From: an uncultured Chlorobiaceae bacterium
GTDB taxonomy: Bacteria > Bacteroidota > Chlorobiia > Chlorobiales > Chlorobiaceae
Assembly: GCA_903836465.1 (NCBI GenBank)
Contig: CAILRB010000044.1
Coordinates: forward strand, 3,816 to 67,815
Length of the DNA: 64,000 nt
Direction of reading: 5' to 3'
In this document: in pieces, positions 1 through 18,488 of the stretch
How the letters are laid out: every line of letters begins with the position of its first letter
Numbering within the stretch: the first letter of the stretch is position 1
The notes under the pieces: model-generated
Told to the model about the DNA's origin: nothing
The model's input: the letters and a program-made list of their open reading frames with translations, nothing else
Database searches by the model: none
Translations under genes and position numbers: made by a program

Positions 1-584
1 AATATTCCTCCATCAAGGGTTTCCGTTTCGGGTGCCTGCAGAAACAGCGAGGTCAGTTCGCTTGCCCCCTGGCCGGTAATTCCGTTGACGTGCATGATTT
101 TGGCTTTGGCGTTTGCACGTCGAACCTGAAAAGCAAACACTTCACGCTCCGCCTGCGACACAATATCGCCCTTGGTGATGACGACGATATCGGCAAACTT
201 GAGCATCGGCCCAATCTTTTTTGGGGTGGTAACGCCCATCAGGTTGTCGATAACGCAGACCGCAAGAACGCCTTTAATATGAGGCGAACAGCGGTTACAC
301 AATCCGGCGCTTTCCGAGACCAGCAGATCGAGATTGAGGGAGATGCCCCACTTCAGGCACTCCTCAATATTGCTGACAAAATAGTGGTCGGGACAGAGAT
401 TGCCGGAGAGACCGGTCTGCACGGGAATACCAAGTGAGCGAAACAGCGCGTCGTCATCCGTCGCAAGACAGTCATATTTCACCGCTCCCGCATGTAACCC
501 GGAGTTCTTGATCGACTTAATGACATTGACAAGCACGGCAGTTTTTCCAGAGGACGGAGGGCCGGATATGGTGACAAGTTTCAT
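1..584 (-). CDS. HypB/UreG-like (G3E/P47K) GTP-binding protein, runs off the window start
   Basis: Absent from the ORF track because there is no stop in the window. Hand translation from ATG at 584: MKLVTISGPPSSGKTAVL (P-loop), GNLCPDH, ESAGLCNRC, VITKGD (G4 motif). Confidence 0.85.
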   Translation of the reverse strand, partial: MKLVTISGPPSSGKTAVLVNVIKSIKNSGLHAGAVKYDCLATDDDALFRSLGIPVQTGLSGNLCPDHYFVSNIEECLKWGISLNLDLLVSESAGLCNRCSPHIKGVLAVCVIDNLMGVTTPKKIGPMLKFADIVVITKGDIVSQAEREVFAFQVRRANAKAKIMHVNGITGQGASELTSLFLQAPETETLDGGI

Positions 585-596
585 TTTTTATACACA

Positions 597-1670
597 TCAG
601 ATTTGAAAAGCATCGGGGCGAAGTCCTTGTTTCAATTCACTATCGAGCATGGCGGTCAACTCCTCATAGTCGTTGTTCAGCAGATAATCCCATGAAGGAA
701 AACTGAACGGCGCTTGCCAGTTGACATCTTCAGCAAAAGAGAAGTCACCTCGTTTCAACGCCTGCCGAATAATGTCGCTGTAGAAAAAATTGACAATCGG
801 CTGACACTCCTCCATGCGTGATGTTTTGACAAACATCAGCATCGGCGCCAGAACAGGCCCATCTTCAAACTCAAGAATTGCCCCGCGCTTGCGAGAGGGC
901 ATCTGTACTGTCGCGGCATTAGGCAGAAGATTGAAGGACGTTCGACGTGGTTCGGAGGAGTCAAGACGCTTGAGAATTTCTGCAAAATGCCAGACATTGC
1001 GGATATTGCGCGCAAAATCTGTTGCAGCGCCACTGCCAAGCTGCTCTTTGAGAATCATCAGAAGAGTGGCAATACTCGCCTTGCCATTATAGCCATGCAC
1101 CGTGATGAGATCCCTGAATCGTGGATCAACCAGATCGCGCCACCGGTGAGGATACGACTCGACCGGATTGAGCGATAAATCAAGCACAATGCTCCAGTAA
1201 CCGATCCCGAAAATCCCGATATTGTGTTCCGTGGCAAGCTTCCGAAAACTCTCCGGCATCACCTTCATTGCTGCCGAACTGGTTATACCGGTATAAATGC
1301 CGGTATCGATAAAGCTCTTTTTGAACCGTTTGGAGAGCACCGTATGCAACCCTGAAGCAACCAGCACTTCAGGAAGATCATCCTCTGTCTGCGCAGCTTT
1401 CAGCTCGCCCTCAATGCCTTTTGAATTACCATCATGCAGCATTGGCGAATAGAGCTGAACAGCGTGCGACGCATTATACAGTTCGGCAAATTCACCAATT
1501 GCCATTTTTGCAACCACCTTGAGCGGACAAGGCATGTTGATATAGAGATTGATTGCCCCCTTCTGAAGCAGAGGCACACCATTTTCAGTTGTTTTTGTAT
1601 GGAGTGGCGGCGCGCCACACACCGCAAGTACGCCACCGTTGTTCTCCATCATCGGTAATGGTTTCAGCAT
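597..1670 (-). CDS. ABC-type substrate-binding-fold protein (AfuA/PotD-like), no obvious signal peptide
   Basis: WSIVLDLS...PHRWRDLVDPRFRDLIT resembles the 'P.SW.DL.DP.YKG.I' segment of SBP_bac_6 proteins; MPCPLK motif near the N-terminus. Confidence 0.7.
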   Translation of the reverse strand: MLKPLPMMENNGGVLAVCGAPPLHTKTTENGVPLLQKGAINLYINMPCPLKVVAKMAIGEFAELYNASHAVQLYSPMLHDGNSKGIEGELKAAQTEDDLPEVLVASGLHTVLSKRFKKSFIDTGIYTGITSSAAMKVMPESFRKLATEHNIGIFGIGYWSIVLDLSLNPVESYPHRWRDLVDPRFRDLITVHGYNGKASIATLLMILKEQLGSGAATDFARNIRNVWHFAEILKRLDSSEPRRTSFNLLPNAATVQMPSRKRGAILEFEDGPVLAPMLMFVKTSRMEECQPIVNFFYSDIIRQALKRGDFSFAEDVNWQAPFSFPSWDYLLNNDYEELTAMLDSELKQGLRPDAFQI

Positions 1671-1682
1671 AATGATCTGGAT

Positions 1683-2783
1683 TTAGTGATTTTTTGACGA
1701 TGAATTTTTCAGCAGTTGAGGGTTGGGATGAAGTACTTCGGCAAGCTCGGCATCAGTGAGTTGGTGGTGATAGAAAATGTCAAAATACTCACGGGTAATC
1801 TTGTTCAGGTCGTAGTGATAGAGGTCGGGATAGAGCAGCTCCGCGACCCACAGGGCGCCCAGGATCCGGTTGGTCGCTGGCGGACGGTCGAACCATCCAA
1901 AAGGCTGAAACGGTATCTGATACAGCTTCTTGTTCTTGACCGCCCGCGTTTGAGCCCAGAGGTTATCGCTCCGGATAGCCTGCATTGTGGTCATTGAGGA
2001 GCCCATTCCTGTCCAGACCAGCACGACATCGGGATTCCACAGCAAAAGCTGCTCCATGGAGACAGCGCTCATACCCTGACCGGCAGACACGGCCACCTGC
2101 GCGACGTTGATGGCGCCGACAACATCGAGAATCTGGCTATGGAAAGAGCCCGAAGGATCCGTATTGAGACCGCGCTCCCCTTCTGCATAATAGACCCGAA
2201 CCCGCTGCTTTTCAGGGATCTGTTTCGCCTTGATGGCAATCATGTCAAAATAGGTATGGAGAAAACCTCTCATCCGGTTTGTCTGTTCCTGACGTCCAAG
2301 AAGCTCACCAAGCACCTTGAAGGTCTGGTCATAGTTACCCATATCCAGAGGAACCATAAAGACCGGAATGCCGGTTTTCTTGCTGAGTCTCTGCGCTTCA
2401 TCCTTTGTTTTTGGATTGATAGTGAAACTGGAGATGATGATATCGGGCTTGAGTCTGATGATCTCCTCTACGGAACCATCAACGTAGGGCAATTGCAGAT
2501 AAGAGCTTTTGAGGTAATGCGTGGTGTTATCCGTCATCCACAACGAGCGGCTCACCAGCATATCGGGAGCGACGGCATACATCAGCACCGTGCCGGGCTT
2601 GTTCACATAAATGTGCCCGATAACAGAAGGCACAACCATTTTCCGTCCGGCCATATCGGTCACTTCTCGAGTGGGGTATGGCCGCTTCCTCTGAGTCGCG
2701 CTATACGCTGAAAGGAGTGCCACAAAAAGCGCCAGCACAACCAGAATGCTTGACCGCATCAGCCTCGTCCTGTACCTGTTCAT
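1683..2783 (-). CDS. Fe-siderophore/cobalamin-type ABC periplasmic binding protein
   Basis: VTDMAGRKMVVP, EEIIRLKPDIII, SMEQLLLWNPDVV, PFGWFDRPP. Start placed at ATG 2783, which forms an ATGA overlap with the upstream stop. Confidence 0.9.
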   Translation of the reverse strand: MNRYRTRLMRSSILVVLALFVALLSAYSATQRKRPYPTREVTDMAGRKMVVPSVIGHIYVNKPGTVLMYAVAPDMLVSRSLWMTDNTTHYLKSSYLQLPYVDGSVEEIIRLKPDIIISSFTINPKTKDEAQRLSKKTGIPVFMVPLDMGNYDQTFKVLGELLGRQEQTNRMRGFLHTYFDMIAIKAKQIPEKQRVRVYYAEGERGLNTDPSGSFHSQILDVVGAINVAQVAVSAGQGMSAVSMEQLLLWNPDVVLVWTGMGSSMTTMQAIRSDNLWAQTRAVKNKKLYQIPFQPFGWFDRPPATNRILGALWVAELLYPDLYHYDLNKITREYFDIFYHHQLTDAELAEVLHPNPQLLKNSSSKNH

Positions 2784-3427
2784 CGCAGTATTGTTGATTT
2801 TTTGAATATGATCCACATACCGGCTTCTCCTCGCTCCACAATTCCCTCAATACCAAGCTTCAGCAGCATGGCTTCAAAGTGGCCTGGTGGATTTTTCGCC
2901 AGTCGTTCTTTGCGCTCTTTATCCCATCTCAGATCGTTCGCTTTTTCTGCCAGGATCTCCTGCAGCAGTTCGGCTGTTCCAAAACCACCGCCGATAGAGG
3001 CCCAGCCGCCAGGCCGAAGCACCCGGTACACTTCCGACAGCCCTTGCTGCTGATCCTCCCAGAAGAAGATTGAGCCCCGGCTGACCACAAGGTCTATGGA
3101 GTTATCGTCAAACGGCAGTTTTTCAGCCGCTCCCTGCACAGCCGATACTCGTCCATCAACTCCATGCTCCCGGCTATTTTCTTTCGCCAGAGCAACACAC
3201 TCAAGCGTAAGATCACACACCGTTACATCGAGAGCGCTTGCTTTTGCAAGTTCAACGGCTAACATGCCAGGCCCTCCACCAAGGTCGATGCAACGACCCG
3301 AGGTAATGCCGGTACGCTCCAGAATCTGTCGGGCAATAACCGGGTAGATTTTTTTAAACTGGCCTTTCATCACCTTTTCATTGAACTCAGCCGCATTAAA
3401 GGTGTATTTTTCTTTTTCCTGTTTCAT
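2780..3427 (-). CDS. Class I SAM-dependent methyltransferase
   Basis: Motif I IDLGGGPG, GAAEKLPFDDNSIDLVVS, EVYRVLRPGG. Confidence 0.9.
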   Translation of the reverse strand: MKQEKEKYTFNAAEFNEKVMKGQFKKIYPVIARQILERTGITSGRCIDLGGGPGMLAVELAKASALDVTVCDLTLECVALAKENSREHGVDGRVSAVQGAAEKLPFDDNSIDLVVSRGSIFFWEDQQQGLSEVYRVLRPGGWASIGGGFGTAELLQEILAEKANDLRWDKERKERLAKNPPGHFEAMLLKLGIEGIVERGEAGMWIIFKKSTILR

Positions 3428-3458
3428 TGATGTAACGTTGAGAAGTCGTTATAGGCAC

Positions 3459-3502
3459 GTCATGCAACTCTTCATGGACCGCTTCCACGAGAGTTGCACG
3501 AC
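3459..3502. other. Intergenic stem-loop between the TBDR and methyltransferase genes
   Basis: GTCATGCAACTCT (3459-3471) / AGAGTTGCACGAC (3490-3502), 12 of 13 bp complementary; no clear U-tract. Confidence 0.5.
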
Positions 3503-3522
3503 CTCTTCTGTACATGTTTTTT

Positions 3523-5586
3523 CTAAAATGCCATACTCAATTCCAGGCCAAGCGTGCGTCCTCTATCGGGATAATAGCCAGTGACATAACGGGTTGCGTA
3601 ATGGACATCACCGAGATTACGCCCATAGAGTGTGGCCGTCAGCCTGTAACCTGAAAAGGGAAATGTCCGCATGATATTCGCGTCGACCGTGGTATACCCT
3701 CCAAGATCGGCATTCTGGATCCCGACCGGACTTGCCGACGTCAGCCAGGAACTGACCTGTTTGACCGAGATATTTGCACGATACTTCTCCCATGCGTGGC
3801 CGAGCAGTGCGGTAAAGAAATCCTTCGGGGTCGAGACTCCGACTCCATCAGTGGTTACACCGTTTGTTGTTGAGCTGCTTGTGGTTAAGTGCGTCCAGGA
3901 AAAGCCGTATGACGTGCTTTGCAGTACATCACCCTTAACGGCAAGCTCAATACCCCGGCGCAACACATTAGCTTCGGTGTACCAATAGTAGGTTTCGCCA
4001 TTGACTGTATAGAATTGCAAGGCGTTATTTGCACCAAGAAGTACAGATTTTTGATTGTCAATTGTGTAATCAAACCACGTCAGCGTTGGCTTGAAATAGC
4101 TTGCCGGAGCAGCTTCAAGTGCAAGTTCAACACGTTCTTGCTTTTCAGCATGAAGCGGCGCACCTGTTTTTGTTTTCATCGTGAAATCACTTGGTGTACC
4201 TTCATCACCATGAAAATAGCGGGCATTCAAGGCCAACATTTCATGAATCTTCCAGCGAGCACCAAGTGCAAAAACTTGTGCCGGTGCCAGAGCAACATCA
4301 TGGTTGGCAAGTGGTTGAGCTGCCACCGTACTCGATACATCACTATGGGTAAGGTCACGACGATAACCACCATCAAGCGTTAACGCTCCATCAAACAGTT
4401 TTTGCTCAACACTACCCGACCACCCATGAACCGTGGTATCAAAATTGTTATAGGGATTGCTCAGGTTTGGCCCAAAACCATTACTGTTGTTGATTTGACC
4501 GCCAAGCTGCACAAACGTATTGCCAAATTGTGCATTATGGCGAAGACTATAGCCACTGGACTCTTCGATATAGTGGCGAAGTGACACAGTAGCGTTGGCA
4601 AAACTTTCATTATGCTCATCCTGTTCATACCGCGTTTTAAAGAGCGACAATATCGTCACCTGATTGTGACTCCAGGCCATGGTCGCCGTGGATGAAAGCA
4701 CTGAAGTGGTAAGCGGGTCATAGTACCATTTATCTGGAGCCAATGCGCCTGTGTAGGTGACACCACGCTGCATTTCCAGCCTGCCGGTATCGGCATAACC
4801 GGTAACAGCAACGCTTAATTTGCCGACTGTTGCGCCAGCATTGATCATACCTGATTGCCCATTCTGTCCATCAAACCAGGTGTCGTTACTGGAACGATCG
4901 TAAGCAGCGACACCACCAGCCAGGTAACCACTCATCGACGAGGCCGCACTGCCAAAACGGCTGCCCACATAGAGATTTTCGCCCGTTGCAAATGGCAGTG
5001 ATCCTGATTTTTCGGTATAGGCAGAGACCACACCTTCCGTTTTTTGCGGATGTTTGGTGCGAATCACCACAAATCCGGTATTAACGCCCGAGGTCGTGCC
5101 CCACTGACCGGGTGTCCGTGTTGGGCCAAGAGCAAGAGAGGTCGCTCCGCGAACAATCTGAATCTCCTCAATATCCGAGAGAGGAATTTTCTGTAAAATG
5201 CGACCGAACGACGACGGAAGAATTGCACCGTCGAGGATGTAGGTCATTTGCCCGCCACCGCGCTGGTCAAGAGAAAAGGGGCTTCGTCTGCCCTGATAGG
5301 TCAGGTTCATACCGGCGGCTTTATTCAACAGGTCAAAGAGATCTTTGGGCGCGTATGCTTCGATCTCTTTTTGGGTGAAGACCTCTGTGCCAAAACCGGC
5401 GCTCGACTCAACGCGAAAGGGGTTGGTGATGCTTTTTGGGTCAAGATCATCACGCTTCGATACCGATGGGGCGGTGACGTTGATGCCGTCAAGCACCACA
5501 GGTTCAGCGCTGGCGATGTTGGCACTCTGGATCACCAGAAGCGTCATGATAAACGACAGGGAACGTTTCATTATTGACGGTGACAT
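3523..5586 (-). CDS. TonB-dependent outer-membrane receptor
   Basis: Signal peptide (probable start 5571, MKRSLSF), TonB-box-like LDGINVTA, plug motif IEEIQIVRGATSLALG, C-terminal NLGD...GRTLGLELSMAF. Confidence 0.95.
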   Translation of the reverse strand: MSPSIMKRSLSFIMTLLVIQSANIASAEPVVLDGINVTAPSVSKRDDLDPKSITNPFRVESSAGFGTEVFTQKEIEAYAPKDLFDLLNKAAGMNLTYQGRRSPFSLDQRGGGQMTYILDGAILPSSFGRILQKIPLSDIEEIQIVRGATSLALGPTRTPGQWGTTSGVNTGFVVIRTKHPQKTEGVVSAYTEKSGSLPFATGENLYVGSRFGSAASSMSGYLAGGVAAYDRSSNDTWFDGQNGQSGMINAGATVGKLSVAVTGYADTGRLEMQRGVTYTGALAPDKWYYDPLTTSVLSSTATMAWSHNQVTILSLFKTRYEQDEHNESFANATVSLRHYIEESSGYSLRHNAQFGNTFVQLGGQINNSNGFGPNLSNPYNNFDTTVHGWSGSVEQKLFDGALTLDGGYRRDLTHSDVSSTVAAQPLANHDVALAPAQVFALGARWKIHEMLALNARYFHGDEGTPSDFTMKTKTGAPLHAEKQERVELALEAAPASYFKPTLTWFDYTIDNQKSVLLGANNALQFYTVNGETYYWYTEANVLRRGIELAVKGDVLQSTSYGFSWTHLTTSSSTTNGVTTDGVGVSTPKDFFTALLGHAWEKYRANISVKQVSSWLTSASPVGIQNADLGGYTTVDANIMRTFPFSGYRLTATLYGRNLGDVHYATRYVTGYYPDRGRTLGLELSMAF

Positions 5587-5587
5587 A

Positions 5588-6427
5588 TCATCTTATTGTT
5601 TTGTGTTGAAAAAAATTATCAGAATCAGACTCCATGACCGGTGCGCATACTTTTCGTGAACAGATACCGTTGTGCGGCGTGTCAAACACCTGCACCTCAA
5701 CGCCGTATATTTGCCTGAGCGTGTCAGGAGTAAGCGTTGTGTCAGGCTTGCCGCAGCAGAACAACGAGCCTTGATCAATCACAACGACTTTTGAACCAAT
5801 CATGAAGGCGTGGTCGGGGGTATGAGTTGCCATGAGAATGCCCACTGACTGTTTGCGAAGCTCCCCGATTTTGCGGATAATCCGAACCTGATTGCCGTAA
5901 TCGAGGTTTGAGGTCGGCTCGTCAAGAATGATGAATCGCGCCTCTTGCGTCAGGGCACGGGCAATAATCACCATCTGCCGTTCCCCACCGCTCAGCTCAG
6001 AAAATGCTCTCTCAGCGAGATGAGTAATCTTGAGCAGTTCAAGACAACTGTCGGCAATATCCCGATCTTTTTTGCCCGGAGAAGCAAAGAGATCGAGATG
6101 CACCGTTCGTCCGAAGAGCACAACATCGCGTACCGTGTAGGGAAATGGCGAGTGGTGAAGTTGTGGCACATAAGCCACAAGTCGCGCAAAATCTTTCGGT
6201 GAAAAGCGTGAAATATCGGTTCCGCCAATGGTAATCATTCCAGCAAGAGGCTTTATAAAACCAAGAATGGTTTTGAACAGCGTCGTCTTCCCCACGCCAT
6301 TCGGCCCAAGCAGGCAGACAATCTCACCCGTCTGAATCGTCAGGCTGACATCGCGCAAAACCACCCGCCCACTGTAGCCCAAATCGGTATGGCTGAGATC
6401 CAGCGATATGTTGCTCTCCATTACCAT
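5588..6427 (-). CDS. FepC-type ABC transporter ATP-binding protein
   Basis: Walker A GPNGVGKT, signature LSGGERQ, Walker B ILDEPT. Confidence 0.95.
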   Translation of the reverse strand: MVMESNISLDLSHTDLGYSGRVVLRDVSLTIQTGEIVCLLGPNGVGKTTLFKTILGFIKPLAGMITIGGTDISRFSPKDFARLVAYVPQLHHSPFPYTVRDVVLFGRTVHLDLFASPGKKDRDIADSCLELLKITHLAERAFSELSGGERQMVIIARALTQEARFIILDEPTSNLDYGNQVRIIRKIGELRKQSVGILMATHTPDHAFMIGSKVVVIDQGSLFCCGKPDTTLTPDTLRQIYGVEVQVFDTPHNGICSRKVCAPVMESDSDNFFQHKTIR

Positions 6428-7416
6428 GACTTTTGGGATGATTTTTTCAGGAACCAGATAAAAAATGGTGCCCCGAGAATCGCCGTGATAATACCGATGG
6501 GAATTTCAACCGAGACCACTGAGCGGGCAAGAGTATCAACCAGCAACATGAAAATGGCACCAAAAAGGAATGAGGTCGGCAGCAACAGGCGGTGGTTAGG
6601 CCCGGCAGCAAAGCGTGCAAGATGCGGCACCATCAGACCAACCCACCCGATAATGCCGGTAATTGATATAATACTGGCAGACATGAGGGTTGCGCAGAGA
6701 ATCACCAGCGCTCGCATCCAGCCCGTATGGACACCAAGCGAGCGGGCTTCATCCTCGCCAAATGAAAGCACATTCAGCCGCCAGCTCACCAGCATCAGGG
6801 GAATACTCCCGACAAACAGCATCGGCAAAATCACCATGAGATCGCTCATCCGAATATTGGCAAGGCTGCCCATGAGCCAGTAGGTGATGGCGGGCAGCTT
6901 GTCATCAGGATCAGCGATATACTTAAGCATGGAGAGCAGTGCGCCGAAGAGGGAGGAGATAATGATCCCCGAAAGCACCAGCACCAGAACGGAATCGTGA
7001 TTGCGTCCAATTGTTTTGCTGATACTGACCGAAATGAGCACGGCGGTTATGCCACCGGCGAACGAGAACACCTGTATTCCGGCCACCGGCAAGGAGAGCA
7101 GAATGGCAAGCGCCGCGCCAAATCCAGCACCGGAGCTGACGCCAAGAATATCGGGACTCACCATCGGATTACGAAACATCCCCTGATACGCTGCGCCTGA
7201 CATGGCCAACGCCCCACCAGCGGCTATTGCGCCAACAAGACGGGGCAAGCGAATATTGACAAGAATAATGGGAAGATTCTCATCACGGCACTGACCAGTC
7301 GTGATCCACGTCAGGAGATCCGCGAACGACACGGGATACCTCCCCGTGCCCATCGAAAAGAGGGCGACCACTGCCAGAACGAGCAGGCAAACCACTATCA
7401 GAGAGAGACCTTTCAT
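6421..7416 (-). CDS. FecCD-family ABC permease
   Basis: IRLPRLVG, FRNPMVSPDILGVSSGA, EARSLGV, IGWVGLMVPH. Confidence 0.95.
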   Translation of the reverse strand: MKGLSLIVVCLLVLAVVALFSMGTGRYPVSFADLLTWITTGQCRDENLPIILVNIRLPRLVGAIAAGGALAMSGAAYQGMFRNPMVSPDILGVSSGAGFGAALAILLSLPVAGIQVFSFAGGITAVLISVSISKTIGRNHDSVLVLVLSGIIISSLFGALLSMLKYIADPDDKLPAITYWLMGSLANIRMSDLMVILPMLFVGSIPLMLVSWRLNVLSFGEDEARSLGVHTGWMRALVILCATLMSASIISITGIIGWVGLMVPHLARFAAGPNHRLLLPTSFLFGAIFMLLVDTLARSVVSVEIPIGIITAILGAPFFIWFLKKSSQKSW

Positions 7417-7485
7417 GGCGTGATCAGGAAAACAAAAAGTTGAACAATTTTGAGAATTCGAAACCCTCTTTGAAGTTAAAAGAAC

Positions 7486-7513
7486 AGCGCTATAACATTA
7501 CAGATATAACGAT
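7486..7513. promoter_or_regulatory. Candidate ModE-binding box 1
   Basis: AGCGCTATAAC-attaca-GATATAACGAT matches the ModE consensus ATCGNTATATA-N6-TATATANCGAT in 11-6-11 geometry. Confidence 0.7.
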
Positions 7514-7552
7514 GATCGAAAAACGAGCAACAGAATTTATGCAATCCAGAGA

Positions 7553-7580
7553 ATCGATATATACGCTTCGCTATAACGAA
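7553..7580. promoter_or_regulatory. Candidate ModE-binding box 2
   Basis: ATCGATATATA-cgcttc-GCTATAACGAA: left half is a perfect consensus match, with a 6-nt spacer. Confidence 0.75.
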
Positions 7581-7832
7581 AAACAAGCAAAATCGGAAGA
7601 TTACAGAGATATCATCTAACTTATTAATACAAGACACAGATTTGTCCATAAATAATTAGGCAATATTATTGCCGTTCCAAATTTTATCGTCAATTATGGA
7701 GATTTGTTATCAGCTAAATAACTTTAATAAGAGACTTTTGGCATAACATGCCCGATTTCGCGAAGATATGATAACGACGCAGAGCCAAACCGCGCAGCAT
7801 TATTATCTCATTCCGTGAGTGTATCGAAATCT

Positions 7833-7903
7833 TCCGGGAACGCCGCGCGACAGCCCGGTATTTTATAATCCCTTTTGCCGAGCTGGAGCTCGGCGTTCCC
7901 AGG
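7833..7903. repeat. Inverted doublet of REP-like palindromes (REPIN-like)
   Basis: 7877-7903 contains the palindrome GCCGAGC-TGGA-GCTCGGC followed by GTTCCCAGG. 7833-7859 is a degenerate inverted copy (20/27 identity by hand), with a 17-nt spacer. Confidence 0.55.
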
Positions 7904-8159
7904 GCGCTTTTGCCTGGAACGATGGTTAGCGCCTTTTTTTCCCCGGTCGTTAACAAATTTTATAAGCACTTTTCAGCTTACGCTATTTGATGGTTACCAT
8001 TTATTCGATTAAACTGGATGAGATATGAGCGGAGATGGTGTCGGTGGGGAAAAGCCTGTTAGCATGGAGCAGATCGCCACCCTCCTGTGCAGGGAAGAGG
8101 TTCTACGCAGATGATGATTTTCGATTTACAAAAAAGTCAGTCAACAGAAGCCAAGAGTT

Positions 8160-9518
8160 ATGATTTTTGCTGCCCAGGCATCAAACCAAATTCCACCACT
8201 GTGGCTTCTTGCTCCCTTTGCTGTCCTTTTGATCATGATCGCGACAGGCCCTCTTTTGTTCCATCGCTTTTGGGAGCGGCACTATCCGGTAATTTCGACA
8301 GGGCTTGGGGTTCTTGTGGCGGGTTACTATGGAGTCGCCATGGAAAACGGGCTGAATGTTTTGGGACATACTCTTGAAGAGTACCTCTCTTTTATTGCCC
8401 TGATCTCATCCCTGTTTATTGTATCCGGTGGAATATTGATCAGGATAGAACGGAGAGGAACTCCCCTGACTAATGCTTTACTGCTTTTTGTTGGAGCCCT
8501 GATTTCAAATCTGGTCGGAACAACCGGAGCATCCATGCTGCTCATACGTCCCTATATGCGCATCAATCAAGGGCGTCTCAAAGCATTTCATATTGTCTTT
8601 TTCATTTTTATTATCAGTAATATCGGCGGTACGCTTACTCCAATCGGTGATCCCCCCTTGTTTCTTGGCTTTTTAAAAGGGGTACCATTTTTCTGGGTAT
8701 TGCCAAAAGTATGGCTCCCTTGGATCATTACCGTGGGTGTCCTGCTTCTCATTTTCGTAATACTTGATGCAAGGGCGGGAAATGTTAAGCTCAAGGAAGC
8801 TACAGTAAACGGCAGAGTGAGGATTACAGGCAAAAGAAATTTCTTTTTTCTCGCAATGATCGTTACAGCAGTTTTTCTTGATCCAGCGGTGATTGAAGGG
8901 TTTCCAAGTCTTCAGAAGCTTTTTCATCTGCCATTCGGTATCCGGGAGCTGATTATGTCTTTCGTTGCCATTACTGCATATAAATTCTCAAATCGTGAGG
9001 CTTTTAAGGGCAATGAGTTCAACTTTGAGCCCATAAAGGAGGTTGCTTTTCTTTTTATTGGCATCTTTGCAACAATGATTCCGGCTCTTGAACTTATTGG
9101 AGACTACGCTTCAAAACATGCCGCCGAATTTTCTGTATCACGCTTTTACTGGATGACAGGGGCGCTTTCCGCGCTGCTTGATAACGCTCCGACTTACATG
9201 AATTTCTTGGCCGGTGCTTTGGGAAAGTTTGGGCTGGATATCGCCACTCCAAAAGAGATACACCTCTTTGCTGATGGCCTTGCCTCCCCGGTGCAGGGAG
9301 ATGTCACCTCAGACATTTATCTTGCGGCGATTTCGGTTGCGGCGGTCTTTTTTGGGGCAATAACCTATATCGGTAACGCCCCGAACTTTATGGTAAAAAA
9401 CATTGCTGCCCAAAGTGATGTGGAAGTGCCAAATTTTCTGGAGTACATTTTCAAATACTCGCTGCCGATACTGCTTCCCTTATTTGCTCTTTTATGGCTC
9501 CTGTTTTTTAACTTTTGA
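8160..9518 (+). CDS. IT-superfamily (NhaD/ArsB/CitMHS-like) putative Na+/H+ antiporter or anion transporter
   Basis: About 12 hydrophobic segments; SNLVGTTGASMLL, NIGGTLTPIGDPPL, LDNAPTY, TYIGNAPNFMVK. Confidence 0.8.
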   Translation: MIFAAQASNQIPPLWLLAPFAVLLIMIATGPLLFHRFWERHYPVISTGLGVLVAGYYGVAMENGLNVLGHTLEEYLSFIALISSLFIVSGGILIRIERRGTPLTNALLLFVGALISNLVGTTGASMLLIRPYMRINQGRLKAFHIVFFIFIISNIGGTLTPIGDPPLFLGFLKGVPFFWVLPKVWLPWIITVGVLLLIFVILDARAGNVKLKEATVNGRVRITGKRNFFFLAMIVTAVFLDPAVIEGFPSLQKLFHLPFGIRELIMSFVAITAYKFSNREAFKGNEFNFEPIKEVAFLFIGIFATMIPALELIGDYASKHAAEFSVSRFYWMTGALSALLDNAPTYMNFLAGALGKFGLDIATPKEIHLFADGLASPVQGDVTSDIYLAAISVAAVFFGAITYIGNAPNFMVKNIAAQSDVEVPNFLEYIFKYSLPILLPLFALLWLLFFNF

Positions 9519-9550
9519 TAGAGTACCATTCATCAACAACACAGAAAACC

Positions 9551-9937
9551 ATGAAAAGCTTTATTACTGCAATCAACAATGGGGAGCACGGGTTTGTTAT
9601 CAAAAACTCTGTTTTTTTACCGTTTCATTGTGAAATCATCAGCATCTGGATTGGGAAGGAGATGTCGTTCATATCAACACCTGACGTCATTACTGATCTT
9701 GGTGATCCTGGTGTTCTCCTGATCAGAGAGGGGGAATCCTACACCAATCTTGTTTTCAGAAAATGGAATGATCTTCCGAAAGAGCTTGGTCACCATAGCG
9801 GGCATATCATTCTGCATGCGACCGAAAAAGGGGCAAATATTTTCAGCAAAGAGAACCTGCACTACATCCGGATTGGTGTTCATGACCATACAAAAGAGCT
9901 TTCTCTGGAAATTATTGATAACCCATTTGACCTGTGA
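9551..9937 (+). CDS. Hypothetical protein
   Basis: Open 128-codon frame (probable ATG at 9551, MKSFITAINNG) filling the gap between the antiporter and moaA. Confidence 0.7.
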   Translation: MKSFITAINNGEHGFVIKNSVFLPFHCEIISIWIGKEMSFISTPDVITDLGDPGVLLIREGESYTNLVFRKWNDLPKELGHHSGHIILHATEKGANIFSKENLHYIRIGVHDHTKELSLEIIDNPFDL

Positions 9938-10002
9938 TTATTCCGCCCCCCATCACTACTTGTTTCAACTTTTTTGTTGACTCTATCATACGATAGTCTT
10001 TA

Positions 10003-10998
10003 TTACCCTCCTATCTCGGACATGCTTGTTCTGCCGGAGTCTTTGGAAGAGTGCTTTCCGTCCAGGGGTTTCTGGGCCACTGCTTTTCGGAACAGATCGG
10101 CGATCGATTTGTGGCTGGCATTGCTGCGGAGAAGTGGCAACAACTTCATCCCCTTTTGGTCATAAAGACAACTGATGATGGTACCGTCGGAGGTAAGACG
10201 GATCTTGTTGCACTGGCTGCAGAAATTTCGTGTAAATGCAGGAATAATCGCAATTGAGCCCTTATGATCAGGCAAGAGATAGCTAAAATACTGGGTTGAG
10301 TGGCCTTTGATAGTCTGAAGCCCGGAATAATTACTTTTCAGGAACTCCTGAATTTTATCGGCGCTGAAAAATTTTCCGGTGCGCCAGATTTGATGGTCGT
10401 CAAACGGTTGCAGCTCCAGAAATCGAACGGTGACGGCGTGCTCTCTGGTCAAATCAACAAATCGCAAAATCTCATCGCTATTGATGTCGCGCATCAGCAC
10501 AACGTTGAGCTTTATGGGAATAACGGTCGTTGCAAGAAGGTTGTCGAGGTTATGGCGCACTCGACTATAGGCATCTCTTCTTGTTATCGTATGATATCGT
10601 TCACGATCAAGGGTGTCAATGCTGAAATTGAGGGCGTCGAGACCTGCATCAACAAGAGCGGGAAGAAAACTGTCGAGCAGAAGACCGTTGGTTGTCAGGT
10701 TTACCGTTTTTATGCCTGCAATTTTTTTGGCTTCACGAACCAATTCTACAATATCCGTGCGCAGAAGAGGTTCCCCTCCGGTAAAGCGCACCTTTGTGAC
10801 TCCAAGAGTGGCAAGCACCTTGATGATGGTCATAATCTCCTGCTTGCTCAGTTGAGAGTGAGCATCAGTACTTTCTTGATGCGCCTCGCTCATGCAGTAG
10901 GAGCATCTCAGGTTGCAGCGCGAAGTGACGGCTATACGGACATAATCTATAGGTCGGTGAAACGTATCGACAAGGAAACCCTGGAAGGGACTGCTCAT
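10003..10998 (-). CDS. moaA: GTP 3',8-cyclase (molybdopterin biosynthesis)
   Basis: Radical SAM CNLRCSYC, RFTGGEPLLR, C-terminal cluster FCSQCNKIRLTSDG...CL, ends with MSEIGG. Confidence 0.95.
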   Translation of the reverse strand: MSSPFQGFLVDTFHRPIDYVRIAVTSRCNLRCSYCMSEAHQESTDAHSQLSKQEIMTIIKVLATLGVTKVRFTGGEPLLRTDIVELVREAKKIAGIKTVNLTTNGLLLDSFLPALVDAGLDALNFSIDTLDRERYHTITRRDAYSRVRHNLDNLLATTVIPIKLNVVLMRDINSDEILRFVDLTREHAVTVRFLELQPFDDHQIWRTGKFFSADKIQEFLKSNYSGLQTIKGHSTQYFSYLLPDHKGSIAIIPAFTRNFCSQCNKIRLTSDGTIISCLYDQKGMKLLPLLRSNASHKSIADLFRKAVAQKPLDGKHSSKDSGRTSMSEIGG

Positions 10999-11317
10999 GC
11001 TGCAAAAAAGGGCAAAAAAAGTGTTATGGAGAAAAAGACGCTGCTTTTTTTTTGAGCCTGCGCCTTCTCCAATATAACAAGCATTACCAACAGTTACTTT
11101 GTGGTAAAATGTTTTACGATTGGATGGTTCATAATATGATTTCTTTTTGGATGACTACTTAAGCCTTTGCCCGGTTTTTTTCCTTTGGCCGTAATCATGT
11201 ATCTTGTTGTCATAAGTTTCAATTTCTGAAAAGCTTCAAGAGGCGCATCATGCCCACTCGTTTTCAGGGATTTCACTAACGAATAGGTTCTATGACCACT
11301 TCGGGAGGAGTTGGCGA

Positions 11318-12127
11318 ATGACATGCAACAAAGAGCTCATCGGCCTTGAAGGCTCAGTCTGGTTTCAGAAGGCCGAGAACAGGTTTCTCGGAGGCGACCG
11401 GATTGCATTACTGGAAAAAATCGATGAGCTTGGCTCAATCAGCAGCGCTGCAAAAGCTGTCGGCATCAGCTACAAAACGGCATGGCATTTGGTCAACATG
11501 ATGAATAATCTATCCGAACAGCCTCTGGTTGACCGCGTAACAGGCGGAAAAGGTGGGGGGGGGACCCTGTTGACCAAAGAGGGGAAAAAAGTTATCGAAC
11601 AGTTCCGTGTTGTTCAGGAAGAGCACCGGAAGTTTCTTGAGAATCTGGGAGATCGTCTCGGAGAGAGCAATCATCTTTATCAATTTCTTAAAAGAATAGC
11701 TATGAAAATCAGTGCACGCAACATTTTTTCCGGTACGGTGGAAAAAATCATCAAGGGAGCAGTTAATTCTGAAGTTGTCCTTCTGCTCAATGGAGGAAGC
11801 CGTATTGTCGCCATTATCACCAATGGTTCGGTTGATAATCTGGGACTTAAGGAAGGCTTGAATGCTTATGCCATCATCAAGGCAAGCTCAATTATTATAG
11901 GCCAGGAGCTGCACGAGGCAAAAATAAGTACACGCAATATTTTGCCAGGCATAATCAGCAAGCTTATTGAAGGACCGGTCAGTACTGAAGTTGATGTGGA
12001 AATTGGTGGCGGGAATGTCATTTCTGCTGTTATTACCCATGGCAGTTCAGAAAAAATGTCATTGAAAGAGGGCGACCATGCCTGCGCAGCATTCAAGGCC
12101 TCAAGCGTCATCATCGGGATAAGCTGA
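11318..12127 (+). CDS. modE: Molybdate-responsive regulator (winged HTH plus two TOBE/Mop domains)
   Basis: GSISSAAKAVGISYKTAW, GGKGGGGT, and two KISARNIF/KISTRNIL...IKASSI TOBE repeats. Confidence 0.92.
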   Translation: MTCNKELIGLEGSVWFQKAENRFLGGDRIALLEKIDELGSISSAAKAVGISYKTAWHLVNMMNNLSEQPLVDRVTGGKGGGGTLLTKEGKKVIEQFRVVQEEHRKFLENLGDRLGESNHLYQFLKRIAMKISARNIFSGTVEKIIKGAVNSEVVLLLNGGSRIVAIITNGSVDNLGLKEGLNAYAIIKASSIIIGQELHEAKISTRNILPGIISKLIEGPVSTEVDVEIGGGNVISAVITHGSSEKMSLKEGDHACAAFKASSVIIGIS

Positions 12128-12937: not shown

Positions 12938-14239
12938 ATGAGTTCAGAAAACTATCGCTTTGAAACGCTTGCCCTGCACGCAGGCCAGCCTGTTGACGCA
13001 ACACTCTCGCGTGGAGTGCCGGTTTACCGCACCACCTCCTATCTTTTCAAGAGCACCGAACATGCAGCAAACCTTTTTGCACTGAAGGAGCTTGGCAATA
13101 TCTATACCCGGCTGATGAACCCCACAACCGATACTTTGGAGCAGCGGGTCACTCAGCTTGAAGGGGGCGCAGCCTCGGTTGCTGTCGCTTCGGGCACTGC
13201 CGCAATTTTTAATACGATCATTACTCTCGCAGAAGCAGGCGACAACATCGTTTCTGCCAACAACCTTTACGGCGGAACCTACACCCAGTTCGATGCCATC
13301 CTTCCGAAATTTGGCATCAACGTCACCTTTGTTGATCCCAAAGATCCTGCCAATTTTGAAAAGGCAATAACAGAAAAAACAAGAGCTCTTTTCATTGAAA
13401 CCATCGGCAATCCGGTTCTTGACTATACTGATGTCAAGGCCATTGCCGAGGTAGCACACCGTAACGGCTTGCCGCTGATTGTCGATGCCACCTTCACCAC
13501 TCCTTACCTGCTTAAAACGATTGACCTTGGAGCTGATATTGTGATCAACTCCCTCACTAAATGGCTTGGCGGCCATGGCGCAGGAATAGGCGGCATTATT
13601 ACTGATGCCGGACGTTTCAACTGGAATGGGGGACGCCACCCGCTCTTTACCGAGGCAGACAATAATTACCACGGTCTACGCTGGGCCATTGACCTTCCGG
13701 AACCTCTTGCTCCAATAGCATTCGCCCTCCGCTTCCGCACGGTGCCACTGAGGAATCTCGGTGCTTGCATTGCGCCTGACAATTCATGGATACTGCTGCA
13801 AGGCATTGAAACTCTCCCTGTCAGGATGGCCCGTCATTCAGAAAATGCACTCAAGGTTGCCGAACATCTTGCAAAACACCCCGGAGTTGCATGGGTTCGT
13901 TATCCCGGTCTGAAAAATGACCCCTCTTACCCTAAAGCTTCAAAAGATTTGAAGAACGGGTTTGGCGGCATGGTTGTCTTTGGAGTAAAGGGTGGTTACG
14001 ATGCTGCCGTGGAGATTATCGACAACATCAAACTCTTCTCACACCTGGCCAATGTTGGCGATGCCAAGAGCCTGATCCTCCATCCGGCAAGCACCTCGCA
14101 CAGCCAGTTGACCGAAGAACAACAACTGCAGAGTGGTCTTTCACCTGACCTGATACGCCTCTCCATCGGCCTTGAACATCCTGACGACCTGATCGAAGCC
14201 CTTGATGAGGCGCTTCAGAGAGTGGCAACAAAACCGTAA
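12938..14239 (+). CDS. metY: O-acetylhomoserine aminocarboxypropyltransferase / OAH-OAS sulfhydrylase
   Basis: FETLALHAG, GNIYTRLMNPT, PLP lysine SLTKWLGGHG, HLANVGDAKSLILHPASTSH. Confidence 0.92.
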   Translation: MSSENYRFETLALHAGQPVDATLSRGVPVYRTTSYLFKSTEHAANLFALKELGNIYTRLMNPTTDTLEQRVTQLEGGAASVAVASGTAAIFNTIITLAEAGDNIVSANNLYGGTYTQFDAILPKFGINVTFVDPKDPANFEKAITEKTRALFIETIGNPVLDYTDVKAIAEVAHRNGLPLIVDATFTTPYLLKTIDLGADIVINSLTKWLGGHGAGIGGIITDAGRFNWNGGRHPLFTEADNNYHGLRWAIDLPEPLAPIAFALRFRTVPLRNLGACIAPDNSWILLQGIETLPVRMARHSENALKVAEHLAKHPGVAWVRYPGLKNDPSYPKASKDLKNGFGGMVVFGVKGGYDAAVEIIDNIKLFSHLANVGDAKSLILHPASTSHSQLTEEQQLQSGLSPDLIRLSIGLEHPDDLIEALDEALQRVATKP

Positions 14240-14241
14240 CC

Positions 14242-14895
14242 ATGAAAAACGAATACAAGAACATTTCTGTCATTCTTGCTGATACCCAGTATTTAACCAA
14301 TGAAGCGATACACGCCATGTTGAGGCCCCTTTTCCATACCTTCTATACCGTATCGACAAAGGCCGATCTGCAAGAGTATCTGCAAAAGGAGACCATCTCG
14401 CTCATCATCACCGATGATCTCCTTTTCGATTTTGATTCAATCAATGATCTTGCTGATCTGAGAAAAAAGCACCAGGAGACAGGAATCGTTGTGTTGACAA
14501 ACTCCTTGACAAATGTAAAAATCAAGGAATTAAATGATATCGGCATCAGAAATATTGCACTGAAAACCGATGATCGCGAAGAGATTTTTCATGCTGTTGA
14601 CGCTGCACTGAAAGGAAAGAAATATTATTCTGGAAATGTTCTGGATATCCTTTTGAAAAAAGAGACCCCTTATGAAGATGCCAGTATTCTGACCTCTTCA
14701 GAAATCGAAATAGTTCGCATGATTTCCGGCGGTTTGTCAACAAAAGAAATTGCTACAAAACGGCATATCAGTTTTCATACCGTCATGACTCACAGAAAAA
14801 ACATTTTTCGCAAACTCGGCGTTTCAAGCAGTCCGGAACTGCTCATGTATGCCATAAAAGCGGGATTGATCGACAATATTGAATACCATATCTGA
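14242..14895 (+). CDS. NarL/LuxR-family response regulator
   Basis: REC-like N-terminus (ILAD, IITDD, VLTN, ALK) and LuxR HTH LTSSEIEIVRMISGGLSTKEIA...TVMTHRKNIFRKLGV. Confidence 0.9.
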   Translation: MKNEYKNISVILADTQYLTNEAIHAMLRPLFHTFYTVSTKADLQEYLQKETISLIITDDLLFDFDSINDLADLRKKHQETGIVVLTNSLTNVKIKELNDIGIRNIALKTDDREEIFHAVDAALKGKKYYSGNVLDILLKKETPYEDASILTSSEIEIVRMISGGLSTKEIATKRHISFHTVMTHRKNIFRKLGVSSSPELLMYAIKAGLIDNIEYHI

Positions 14896-14897
14896 CC

Positions 14898-14945
14898 ATA
14901 CCCTGTTTATGGTATATCAGATGCCTGTTTAACGGGATTTATAAT
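14898..14945 (+). promoter_or_regulatory. Candidate cysK promoter with two 18-bp quasi-palindromes and a TATAAT -10
   Basis: ATACC-CTGTTTAT-GGTAT (14898-14915), ATGCC-TGTTTAAC-GGGAT (14921-14938), TATAAT at 14940-14945. Confidence 0.45.
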
Positions 14946-15001
14946 TATGTATTTATTAACGATGTTGAAGGTCATTACAACCACCTAAACAATCAACAGC
15001 T

Positions 15002-15955
15002 ATGGGACGTATTGCAAAAAAATTGACCGATCTTATCGGAAACACACCTCTTCTTGAGCTTGGAAATTTCAATCGTGAACATGATGCCCTGGGCACGATT
15101 ATTGCGAAACTTGAATACTTTAACCCTGGGGGAAGTGTCAAAGACCGTATTGGTTTTTCAATGATCGACAAGGCTGAAAAAGAGGGCTTGCTGAATAAAG
15201 AGAGCATCATCATTGAGCCGACAAGCGGCAATACCGGTATTGCCCTGGCGTTTATCGCTGCAGCGAAAGGATACCGCCTGATACTCACCATGCCTGAAAC
15301 CATGAGTCTCGAACGCAGGAATCTGCTCAAGGCGCTTGGCGCAGAGCTGGTGCTGACACCTGGCCCTGAAGGAATGGTCGGAGCCATCAGAACTGCCGAT
15401 GAACTGCACTCGGAATATCCAAATTCTTTTGTTCCGCAACAGTTCAAAAACCTTGCAAATCCTGAAATTCATCGCAAAACAACGGCAGAAGAGATCTGGA
15501 ATGATACTGACGGAAAGGTTGATTTCTTTGTCAGCGGGGTAGGCACGGGCGGTACGATAACCGGTGTTGGTGAGGTACTCAAAGCGCGGAACCCTGAGGT
15601 AAAAATTGTTGCTGTTGAACCATTCGATTCACAGGTTATTGCCGGCGGTAAACCTGGACCACACAAAATACAGGGTATCGGCGCCGGTTTTGTGCCGGAT
15701 ATTCTTAACACCTCCATTATCGATGAAATTATCCCGGTTAAAAATGAAGATGCCCTTCGTACCGGCCGAAAACTGGCCAAAACCGAAGGACTTATTGTGG
15801 GTATTTCTTCCGGCGCAGCCGTTTATGCCGCTTTACAGCTTGCACTGCGTGAGGAAAACAAGGGCAAACGAATTGTCGTCATCCTGCCGGATACCGGAGA
15901 GCGGTACCTCTCCACGCTGCTCTACCAGTTTGACAGTGAACCAGTCAATATTTGA
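15002..15955 (+). CDS. cysK: Cysteine synthase A
   Basis: [41 protein letters not shown]. Confidence 0.97.
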
Positions 15956-16006
15956 ACATAATTTTATCAATACGGAGCACCATCCGACAGAGGGAGATTA
16001 TTACTA

Positions 16007-16921
16007 ATGCAGACCAACAACGGCGATATCATTGAAGAGGCGATCAAGCTTTTATCGAGCCCTGCTGATGATAGTGAAGGTGACTATTCCGGGCAGCACG
16101 AATATCTGCTGCCCTCTATTGAAAAGCTCAAAGAGATTGTCGAACTCCTCAGGTCAATACTCTTTCCTGGGTATTTCGGCGGACCCGTATTGCGTCGCCA
16201 GTCGCTTCAACATTTTCTCGGTGTCAGGGTTGAAAAACTTTACGGATTGCTTGCTGAACAGATTCTCAGCGTTCAGCATTTCGACATAGAAAACAACAGT
16301 GCTGCCAATGCTTCAGAAAAAGCCGCCGAAGTTACCCGCCAGTTCATCGGAATTCTTTCGGAGATCAGGAAGAAATTATGGACTGACGTCAAGGCCATCT
16401 ACGACGGAGACCCGGCGGCAAAAAACTATGGTGAGATCATCTTCTGCTACCCTTCCATCAGGGCAATGGTCAACTACCGCTCAGCTCACACCCTGCTGTC
16501 GCTTGGCGTGCCCCTGATTCCGAGAATTATTACTGAAATGGCCCATTCGGAAACCGGGATTGACATTCATCCCGGCGCTCACATCGGAGACTATTTTTCA
16601 ATTGATCATGGCACCGGTGTCGTCATCGGTGAAACCTGCATTATCGGCAGCCACGTCCGACTCTACCAGGGAGTCACCCTTGGCGCAAAGAAGTTTGCTC
16701 TCGATGAACACGGCAACCCGGTCAAGAATCTGCCGCGCCACCCAATTATTGAGGATAACGTCGTCATTTACTCAAACGCCAATATTCTTGGCAGAATAAC
16801 CATCGGCAAAAACTCTGTTATCGGTGGCAACGTGTGGCAGACAAAAAGCGTACCGCCCAATTCAAGAGTTTTGCAGCAGATCGCCGTTGAAAGCAGTTTT
16901 ACCGACGGCCTCGGCATTTGA
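16007..16921 (+). CDS. cysE: Serine O-acetyltransferase (EpsC/SrpH-like long form)
   Basis: GDPAA, GIDIHPGAHIG...IDHGTGVVIGET hexapeptide repeats, LYQGVTLG, RHPII. Confidence 0.93.
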   Translation: MQTNNGDIIEEAIKLLSSPADDSEGDYSGQHEYLLPSIEKLKEIVELLRSILFPGYFGGPVLRRQSLQHFLGVRVEKLYGLLAEQILSVQHFDIENNSAANASEKAAEVTRQFIGILSEIRKKLWTDVKAIYDGDPAAKNYGEIIFCYPSIRAMVNYRSAHTLLSLGVPLIPRIITEMAHSETGIDIHPGAHIGDYFSIDHGTGVVIGETCIIGSHVRLYQGVTLGAKKFALDEHGNPVKNLPRHPIIEDNVVIYSNANILGRITIGKNSVIGGNVWQTKSVPPNSRVLQQIAVESSFTDGLGI

Positions 16922-18470: not shown

Positions 18471-18488
18471 ATTCACAATTGTTATACT

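Follow-up and report, generated by a model that had tools for sequence, protein, structure and literature searches.

ModE-type boxes upstream of a TonB-dependent import operon in a freshwater Chlorobiaceae bacterium point to molybdenum regulation and a likely role in molybdenum or tungsten acquisition

We analyzed a 64,000-nucleotide (nt) stretch of DNA from the genome of an uncultured freshwater Chlorobiaceae bacterium (contig CAILRB010000044.1 of assembly GCA_903836465.1; hereafter the window), which recurs in lake-water metagenomes, and focused on the operon at its beginning that encodes a TonB-dependent outer-membrane receptor and a type II ATP-binding cassette (ABC) importer. An earlier note made from the sequence of the window had placed this iron-type operon under the control of the molybdenum (Mo) regulator ModE. 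Comparative evidence strongly supported this proposal, namely the footprints upstream of orthologous operons, the boxes shared with modABC and anfHDGK, the linkage to mod genes that extends across several phyla to Methanosarcina, and the lack of a Fur or B12 competitor, and the boxes upstream of the operon are thus very probably ModE operators that render it Mo-regulated. We further consider that its job is likely, at a reasonable rather than a high level of confidence, the acquisition of Mo or tungsten (W).

Two ModE-type boxes upstream of the operon

As the earlier note had described, two boxes matching the ModE consensus were located 70-165 nt upstream of the first gene of the operon, and their coordinates and sequences were verified. 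The proximal box (AGCGCTATAAC-ATTACA-GATATAACGAT, 7486-7513) lies approximately 70-97 nt, and the distal box (ATCGATATATA-CGCTTC-GCTATAACGAA, 7553-7580) approximately 137-164 nt, upstream of the start codon of the FecCD-family permease gene. Compared with the Escherichia coli ModE consensus ATCGNTATATA-N6-TATATANCGAT, as quoted in PMC545781, the boxes agreed, by our count, at 16 and 17 of the 20 specified positions, respectively, and the core CGNTATA-N10-TATANCG had exactly two perfect matches in the 64 kb, at 7488-7511 and 7555-7578. A scan with a ModE weight matrix, which the earlier note had proposed as a check, was run on the window using a matrix trained solely on 10 sites upstream of modA or modD from other genomes, and the two boxes obtained the top scores by a wide margin (24.8 and 23.2 bits; next best, 10.4 bits). 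They thereby stood about 6 standard deviations above the background of the window (-32 ± 9.6 bits), a control that is partly circular because the training sites were chosen with the same core pattern.

The presumed regulator is encoded nearby. The open reading frame (ORF) at 11318-12127 on the plus strand is a full-length modE encoding a ModE-type helix-turn-helix and two Mop/TOBE domains (TIGR00637, 99.7 bits against a cut-off of 98.5; TIGR00638 Mop, 139.8 bits in two stretches; Pfam HTH_1 and two TOBE matches), and moaA was found at 10003-10998. Both genes had been described as 3-4 kb away; they are indeed close, at a corrected distance of 2.6-4.7 kb from the operon start. In the related loci L007/L038, L008, and L025, too, modE and the operon are a few kb apart (related loci are designated by L and a number; their gene maps were made by tblastn at a coverage of at least 50% and are not curated annotation).

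Conservation of the boxes in Chlorobiaceae

The closest relatives of the receptor (88-97% identity) were found in metagenome-assembled Chlorobiaceae genomes, and the orthologue of Pelodictyon phaeoclathratiforme was 87% identical. Every Chlorobiaceae locus reaching upstream of FecCD carried one or two boxes, which precede FecCD with differing spacers in L003/L014, L005/L064, L007/L038, L008, L025, and L009/L081, the distal box being kept in L064, L014, L008, and L025, and the proximal one in L064, L038, L008, and L025. When six Chlorobiaceae upstream regions were aligned (49% mean column identity), the boxes appeared as conserved islands, and their 6-nt spacers varied. The absence of the boxes from orthologues, which the earlier note had named as an outcome contrary to its proposal, was therefore not what we observed; instead, the boxes are retained as phylogenetic footprints upstream of orthologous operons.

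The boxes also lie in intergenic regions shared with established targets of ModE. In L081 (the same locus as L009), a close relative, the same two boxes were found between the operon and the divergent modA-modB-modC, one box being about 46-90 nt upstream of modA; the importer part of this locus (6700-9000) is degraded, with FecCD, the ATPase, and the receptor reduced to fragments and with intact genes for the binding proteins, the GTPase, the ABC-like ATPase, and TonB. In L025, L087, and L088, the same boxes separate the operon from the divergent anfH-I1-I2-anfD-anfG-anfK-anfO, whose NCBIfam scores (ANFD, 1090 bits; anfG, 171; anfK, 957) all exceeded the cut-offs. The divergent neighbors in L005/L064 are nifH, a nifB-like gene, and a gene for a nifA-like activator with a one-mismatch box of its own. 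Furthermore, the same motif precedes modA in L081, L017, and L018, and modD-modABC in L095, L098, and L100. Since modABC and alternative nitrogenases are the canonical Mo-repressed targets of ModE, whose affinity for DNA is raised by molybdate (PMC12327845), and the boxes are shared with precisely these neighbors, repression by Mo would be the most economical reading.

Some features of these related loci merit separate mention. A complete Fe-only nitrogenase operon comprising anfH-I1-I2-anfD-anfG-anfK, a PNPOx-like gene, and anfO occurs in Chlorobiales (L025, 2582-7574; L087, L088, L079, and L105); its carriers include Chloroherpeton thalassium ATCC 35110, and several of these genomes have it in divergent orientation to the importer, with the boxes shared. 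In Chloroherpeton thalassium and others, a paralogue of the SBP_bac_6 binding protein of the window operon is encoded behind an exact ModE box just upstream of an anfA-like sigma-54 activator gene (L079, 9874-11065; L105, 7945-9146; L087, from about 20920 onward), and may act alongside AnfA as a sensor of Mo or metals. In L005, a TIR-domain protein of the CAP12/Pycsar effector family is encoded just downstream of the TonB gene of the operon (16229-16918).

Promoter region and other regulators

The sole good sigma-70-like match in a consensus scan was TTGACG-17-AATAAT at 7693-7665 on the minus strand, upstream of both boxes. This site could be the promoter of the operon, which would place the boxes in the leader. 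The -10 element of this match sits inside a perfect hairpin, GGCAATAATATTGCC, at 7673-7659. The 580 nt separating the distal box from the next gene (7580-8160) also contain an 80-codon ORF starting with TTG (7714-7956), and a CitMHS_2 (ArsB/NhaD-superfamily) permease gene and a gene for a 140-residue protein without a family match occupy the region between the boxes and moaA/modE (8160-9937). This gene pair was not detected next to orthologous operons. Control of the divergent CitMHS_2 gene (8160-9518) by the boxes was considered and rejected, as the gene is 580 nt distant and was not found beside the orthologous operons.

Other regulators were looked for. The window contained no match to the Fur box GATAATGATAATCATTATC at three or fewer mismatches, the consensus being that of E. 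coli, from which the Fur motif of Chlorobi may differ. Fur control was rejected on this basis. Searches against Rfam gave no match at the gathering score anywhere in the window and nothing at E ≤ 1 in 7300-11400; there is therefore no cobalamin or molybdenum cofactor (Moco) riboswitch in the window, and none was found in four related loci (L078, L025, L010, and L024), so that control by a B12 or Moco riboswitch was likewise ruled out. Among the RNA runs searched for the locus, none contained it.

Linkage to molybdate genes beyond Chlorobi

Receptor orthologues with 44-97% identity occur in at least four phyla, those beyond Chlorobi being 44-60% identical to the window protein. They are carried by Campylobacterota (Sulfuricurvum, Sulfurovum, Sulfurimonas, Sulfurospirillum, and Arcobacteraceae), Desulfobacterota (Desulfobulbus, Desulfobacter, Desulfosarcina, Desulfatiglans, and Geopsychrobacteraceae), and some Gammaproteobacteria, and Rhodocyclaceae, Rhodoferax, and Ca. 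Thiodiazotropha are among the carriers too; the cultured carriers include Pelodictyon phaeoclathratiforme, Chloroherpeton thalassium ATCC 35110, Sulfuricurvum kujiense DSM 16994, Desulfobulbus elongatus DSM 2908, and Desulfosarcina variabilis. The core conserved across the loci consists of the receptor, a methyltransferase, a Peripla_BP_2 binding protein, FecCD, and the ATPase. To this core are added an SBP_bac_6 protein, a GTPase, an ABC-like ATPase, and TonB in Chlorobi; a globin, a luciferase-like monooxygenase, and a second receptor in Campylobacterota; and DUF364 and FmdE in Desulfobacterota, together with a radical S-adenosylmethionine (SAM) protein in one locus.

The module was repeatedly found in or beside clusters of molybdate genes. 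In Sulfuricurvum kujiense DSM 16994, the entire module is inserted between modA and modD-modB-modC, beside a mop gene, and receptor genes adjoin modE, modABC, or mop in Rhodocyclaceae, Desulfobulbus, Ca. Thiodiazotropha, Arcobacteraceae, and Sulfurospirillum. Overall, modA, modB, modD, modE, or mop was present within 10 kb in 33 of the 71 related stretches, the boxes typically lying between modE or modABC and the module (e.g., L022, L024, L030, L043, L060, L063, and L074). A second module of Chlorobi and Bacteroidales, which has a CobA-like tetrapyrrole methylase at its head and a different receptor, continues with FecCD, ATPase, methyltransferase, Peripla_BP_2, SBP_bac_6, GTPase, and ABC-like ATPase, and is flanked by a divergent modE, with a box between, and by modCBA-modD. 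Genes for SBP_bac_6, GTPase, and ABC-like ATPase are also found as a trio beside mod genes without the rest of the module, again with boxes (L092, L096, and L099).

These data bear on the simplest objection, namely that the boxes are non-functional, being chance AT-rich palindromes or the sites of another regulator, and that the operon imports iron or B12 in the ordinary way. TATA-rich palindromes are indeed likelier in AT-rich intergenic DNA, the position of the promoter is predicted only, and ModE control itself rests on sequence evidence. The 69 non-redundant related loci (1.22 Mb), however, contained 16 exact and 32 one-mismatch boxes, compared with 0 and about 1 in Markov simulations, an enrichment of more than 40-fold. 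Considering also that the two matches are unique in the window at about 6 standard deviations above its background, that the boxes are conserved while their flanks diverge, that the same motif is found at modABC and modD operons, and that neither a Fur box nor a riboswitch was detected, this explanation is highly improbable and can be regarded as effectively excluded.

Gene products of the operon

Domain searches agreed with the gene list given in the earlier note (TonB-dependent receptor, FecCD permease, ATPase, two binding proteins, methyltransferase, and GTPase), and the range 597-7580 proposed for the operon was confirmed for six of these genes, the GTPase gene lying outside it at 584-1. 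The region 1-7416 forms a single tightly packed row of genes on the minus strand, within which no internal promoter or terminator scored above chance. The first gene (6421-7416) encodes the FecCD-family permease of a type II ABC importer (Pfam FecCD, 298 bits), which is BtuC/FecC-like in NCBIfam with scores below the cut-offs. The gene for the ABC transporter ATPase (5588-6427; Pfam ABC_tran, 114 bits) overlaps the permease gene by 7 nt, and its NCBIfam matches were of the heme/corrinoid/FecE class, all below cut-off. Since FecCD, ABC_tran, and Peripla_BP_2 were all present, the importer was assigned to type II, and the SBP_bac_11 and BPD_transp_1 domains of a ModABC system were not found in the operon; in related loci, ModABC-like proteins are encoded by separate genes.

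The TonB-dependent outer-membrane receptor (3523-5586; 687 residues) belongs to a distinct, well conserved clade and was assigned to the TonB-dependent transporters, in which an N-terminal plug precedes a 22-strand beta-barrel with an aromatic last residue. The window receptor ends in ...LELSMAF and in Pfam gave Plug only (40 bits), and the barrel family PF00593 was recorded for several of its orthologues. Neither a named NCBIfam receptor family nor a sequence in the PDB matched it. In close relatives, the GTPase gene is followed by genes for a soluble ABC-type ATPase (331 residues) and then TonB, the TonB_C gene closing the operon in L005/L013/L025, a point before which the window stops; a cognate TonB was also found in a Sulfurimonadaceae cluster, as ExbB-ExbD-TonB.

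The gene at 2780-3427 encodes a class I SAM-dependent methyltransferase (UbiE/ArsM-like by Pfam/NCBIfam) without a signal peptide, and its homologues adjoin or are near the receptor gene in most of the related loci. It is followed by the gene for the Peripla_BP_2 periplasmic binding protein (1683-2816; Pfam, 82 bits), which has a hydrophobic N-terminus, and then by that for the SBP_bac_6 binding protein (597-1670; Pfam), which lacks a signal peptide and is presumably cytoplasmic. The latter had no relative in the PDB by sequence, and its confident structure model (predicted local distance difference test score, 85) resembled FbpA/FutA/AfuA-class proteins at template modeling scores of 0.5-0.6 and 10-15% identity, a similarity that suggests an FbpA/FutA-like fold and is too weak to name the ligand. 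The last gene, cut by the window edge at base 1 (1-584), encodes a G3E-family P-loop GTPase of the CobW/HypB/UreG class, with GPPSSGKT in its translation; its full-length homologue in L005 contains a CobW-type domain (Pfam cobW, 44 bits) and scored below the hypB and ureG cut-offs. UreG was the nearest solved relative of the GTPase, a weak match (E = 5e-6), and matches to RecA in the PDB were set aside as P-loop noise.

Comparison with known systems

The closest solved relatives of the Peripla_BP_2 protein were, in order, 4PAG from Sulfurospirillum (uncharacterized; E = 1.5e-49), 4OVK, and MolA (PDB 3PSA/3PSH; E = 3.8e-19), the last being significant only over residues 164-350, i.e., the C-terminal lobe. 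MolA, the closest functionally characterized relative, binds molybdate and tungstate for the type II importer MolBC-A of Haemophilus influenzae (HI1470/71/72), a precedent for the transport of Mo/W oxyanions by an iron-type importer (PMC4031551). MolBC-A shares with the window operon its FecCD-class permease, its ABC ATPase, and its Peripla_BP_2 binding protein. In contrast, MolBC-A is of low affinity and works at high molybdate concentration, and it lacks the outer-membrane receptor, methyltransferase, cytoplasmic binding protein, and GTPase of the window operon. To our knowledge, ModE control of MolBC-A has not been described.

The modABC operon of E. coli shares with the window operon the type of regulator, the operator consensus, and, as proposed here, the shutdown of uptake when Mo is sufficient, whereas its products (ModA, SBP_bac_11; ModB, BPD_transp_1) form a type I importer without an outer-membrane component. 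With TonB-dependent metallophore uptake, as in Fur-regulated siderophore systems and BtuB/BtuFCD, the operon has in common the receptor, TonB, a cluster-A binding protein, and FecCD/ATPase; it differs in having neither a Fur box nor a cobalamin riboswitch, no chelator biosynthesis genes nearby, and apparently ModE as the regulator. The catechol siderophores of Azotobacter bind Mo and vanadium. Literature searches for a TonB-dependent Mo or thiomolybdate transporter, or for a bacterial module of this type including a receptor, found no description.

The nearest experimental counterpart is archaeal. The ma1224-1234 operon of Methanosarcina acetivorans (an "Fe ABC transporter" with nifV) has a promoter to which ModE binds in an electrophoretic mobility shift assay, and the same motif, reported as a motif without binding, lies upstream of ma1200-1197, which is also called an Fe ABC transporter (Mol Microbiol 2025, PMC12327845). 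Iron-type importers in a ModE regulon have thus already been published for one methanogen. An exact search with the ma1200 motif led to a Methanosarcina metagenome-assembled genome (MAG), in which homologues of the binding protein (38% identity, E = 1e-71), methyltransferase (37%), FecCD (53%), and ATPase (43%) are encoded directly downstream of the motif, together with a second, weaker binding-protein match; the corresponding search of genome contigs with the exact ma1234 motif gave no match. Because the operon of this MAG matches the window genes, both Bacteria and Archaea have the core module in association with a ModE motif. The archaeal operons resemble that of the window in being iron-type ABC operons behind a ModE palindrome, and they lie near Mo-repressed alternative nitrogenase genes. 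The differences are that the archaeal operon has no TonB-dependent receptor or TonB, that neither SBP_bac_6 nor the GTPase was found in the Methanosarcina MAG stretch examined, and that the archaeal motif is RTTATGT-N8-RCATAAY.

Cargo and proposed mechanism

Based on the cross-phylum embedding in mod clusters, the homology to MolA, and the habitat, we infer that the operon serves Mo/W uptake induced by Mo starvation, as follows. When Mo (or W) is replete, molybdate-loaded ModE, the product of the gene at 11318-12127, would bind both boxes and repress the operon, and when Mo is scarce the operon would be transcribed. The TonB-energized receptor would then capture scarce Mo/W species, be it trace molybdate, thiomolybdate, or a Mo complex, and the MolA-related binding protein would hand the cargo to the FecCD/ATPase type II importer. 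In the cytoplasm, the methyltransferase, the FbpA-like binding protein, the G3E GTPase, and the downstream soluble ABC-type ATPase may process or traffic it. As to the habitat, a passage of PMC3440940 gives typically less than 20 nM Mo for freshwaters, and one of PMC11484787 describes the thiolation of molybdate by sulfide.

The earlier note had suggested either import of a chelated Mo, vanadium, or W species, or supply of metal for a Mo-independent nitrogenase. The linkage to mod genes supports Mo/W, and the divergent anf operon in Chlorobiales supports a supply to nitrogenase, whereas vanadium was rejected, because the nitrogenase genes beside the module scored as anfD/G/K and no vnf genes were seen elsewhere. 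The cross-phylum link to mod genes is fitted best by the acquisition of Mo/W.

Several points weigh against this function or its regulation. The FecCD, Peripla_BP_2, FbpA-like fold, and TonB-dependent receptor families are typical of iron-chelate, heme, and B12 uptake; MolA is the third-best solved relative of the binding protein and aligns significantly over one lobe; and the low affinity of MolBC-A is unlike that expected of a starvation-induced scavenger. Why a free oxyanion would require a receptor, a methyltransferase, or a GTPase is not obvious. The boxes may lie in the leader and not on the promoter, because the only good sigma-70-like match is upstream of both, a match obtained with a sigma-70 consensus that Chlorobi promoters may not follow. 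ModE binding, Mo-dependent expression, and transport of Mo by this family are predictions. Furthermore, the association with anf in Chlorobiales fits a role in iron supply equally well, and the homologous clusters of M. acetivorans were read by the authors of that study as Fe transporters (PMC12327845).

The last two points lead to an alternative in which the Mo-repressed system imports iron or an iron complex to meet the added iron demand of enzymes that work without Mo and are produced once Mo is exhausted, the Fe-only nitrogenase among them. Besides the component families, it draws on a reading of this kind that the M. acetivorans authors gave for ModE-bound clusters, on the boxes shared with the divergent anfHDGK in L025/L087/L088, on the SBP_bac_6 paralogue adjoining anfA, and on the modeled fold of the signal-less SBP_bac_6 protein, which resembles those of the ferric-binding FbpA and FutA. 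Against this, in Campylobacterota, Desulfobacterota, Rhodocyclaceae, and Thiodiazotropha the module lies in or beside modABC, modE, modD, or mop clusters, and neither anf nor nifH was detected within 10 kb of it; the window itself has no nitrogenase genes, the characterized relative of the binding protein binds molybdate and tungstate rather than iron, and an iron importer without detectable Fur control would be unusual. We therefore regard iron import as an unlikely, yet serious, explanation.

Alternatively, the cargo could be organic, either a metal complex or a cofactor (for example, Mo/W bound to a metallophore, a tetrapyrrole-like compound, or a pterin cofactor), and require chemical processing once imported; the near-universal methyltransferase and the lineage-specific processing enzymes would then be explained. 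In most loci, the receptor comes with a class I methyltransferase; the second variant, that of Chlorobi and Bacteroidales, begins with a CobA-like tetrapyrrole methylase; and the accessory genes vary by lifestyle among Campylobacterota, Desulfobacterota, and Chlorobi. TonB-dependent receptors with Peripla_BP_2/FecCD systems, moreover, classically carry bulky ligands. On the other hand, no chelator biosynthesis genes (nonribosomal peptide synthetase or similar) were present in the annotated neighborhoods, no cobalamin or Moco riboswitch was detected in the window or the four related loci, the precedent of MolA indicates that a bare oxyanion can be a ligand of this class of binding proteins, and the roles given to the processing enzymes are conjecture. 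An organic cargo is accordingly a rather improbable one in our estimation, and it would overlap with Mo/W acquisition if the complex carried Mo.

Other features of the window

The region 12938-21628 contains a sulfur-assimilation cluster with a gene for an SrpI-like type 2A encapsulin shell protein having a cyclic nucleotide-binding domain (16965-18419). Beside it lies the gene for a long cysteine desulfurase (18489-20375), probably the cargo of the encapsulin, and the pair is flanked by an O-acetylhomoserine sulfhydrylase-like gene, a CysK-like gene, and genes for a hexapeptide acyltransferase and a Cys/Met pyridoxal phosphate enzyme. Genes for 2-oxoglutarate dehydrogenase E1, E2, and E3 (24743-30285) were unexpected for a green sulfur bacterium, as these organisms normally run the reductive tricarboxylic acid cycle with 2-oxoglutarate:ferredoxin oxidoreductase. 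The hydrogenase maturation genes hypE/D/F/B follow at 30289-35977. The region 52780-59506 resembles a cbb3-oxidase cluster, here in a presumed strict anaerobe, with genes for a heme-copper oxidase subunit I (COX1 family, 463 residues), a CcoG-like ferredoxin, and a heavy-metal P-type ATPase. Toward the end of the window (58001-64000), the GC content drops from 0.60 (58-60 kb) to 0.41-0.44 (60-64 kb), and this low-GC end carries a 387-codon ORF without a family match and branched-chain amino-acid-type ABC permease genes.

Implications

In its most specific form, which we put forward tentatively as a possibility, the operon would represent a dedicated Mo/W pathway of anoxic, sulfidic habitats, importing non-molybdate Mo (thiomolybdate or organically bound Mo) via the TonB receptor and the type II ABC importer, with the metal released or trafficked by the methyltransferase and the trio of FbpA-like protein, G3E GTPase, and ABC-type ATPase. 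A statement in PMC11484787 names molybdate as so far the sole known bioavailable source of Mo. If the proposed pathway is true, the receptor would be the first TonB-dependent one for Mo, the GTPase the first G3E metallochaperone tied to Mo, and the "Fe ABC transporter" operons of methanogens a receptor-less version of the same system. The findings further suggest that many genes annotated as iron-complex transporters are misnamed. How anaerobes acquire Mo where sulfide strips molybdate from solution is a question that bears both on nitrogen fixation in stratified lakes and on models of the low-Mo Proterozoic ocean, and the widespread, apparently ModE-controlled module described here, physically tied to modABC and the Fe-only nitrogenase, offers testable candidates in green sulfur bacteria, sulfur-oxidizing Campylobacterota, sulfate reducers, and methanogens.

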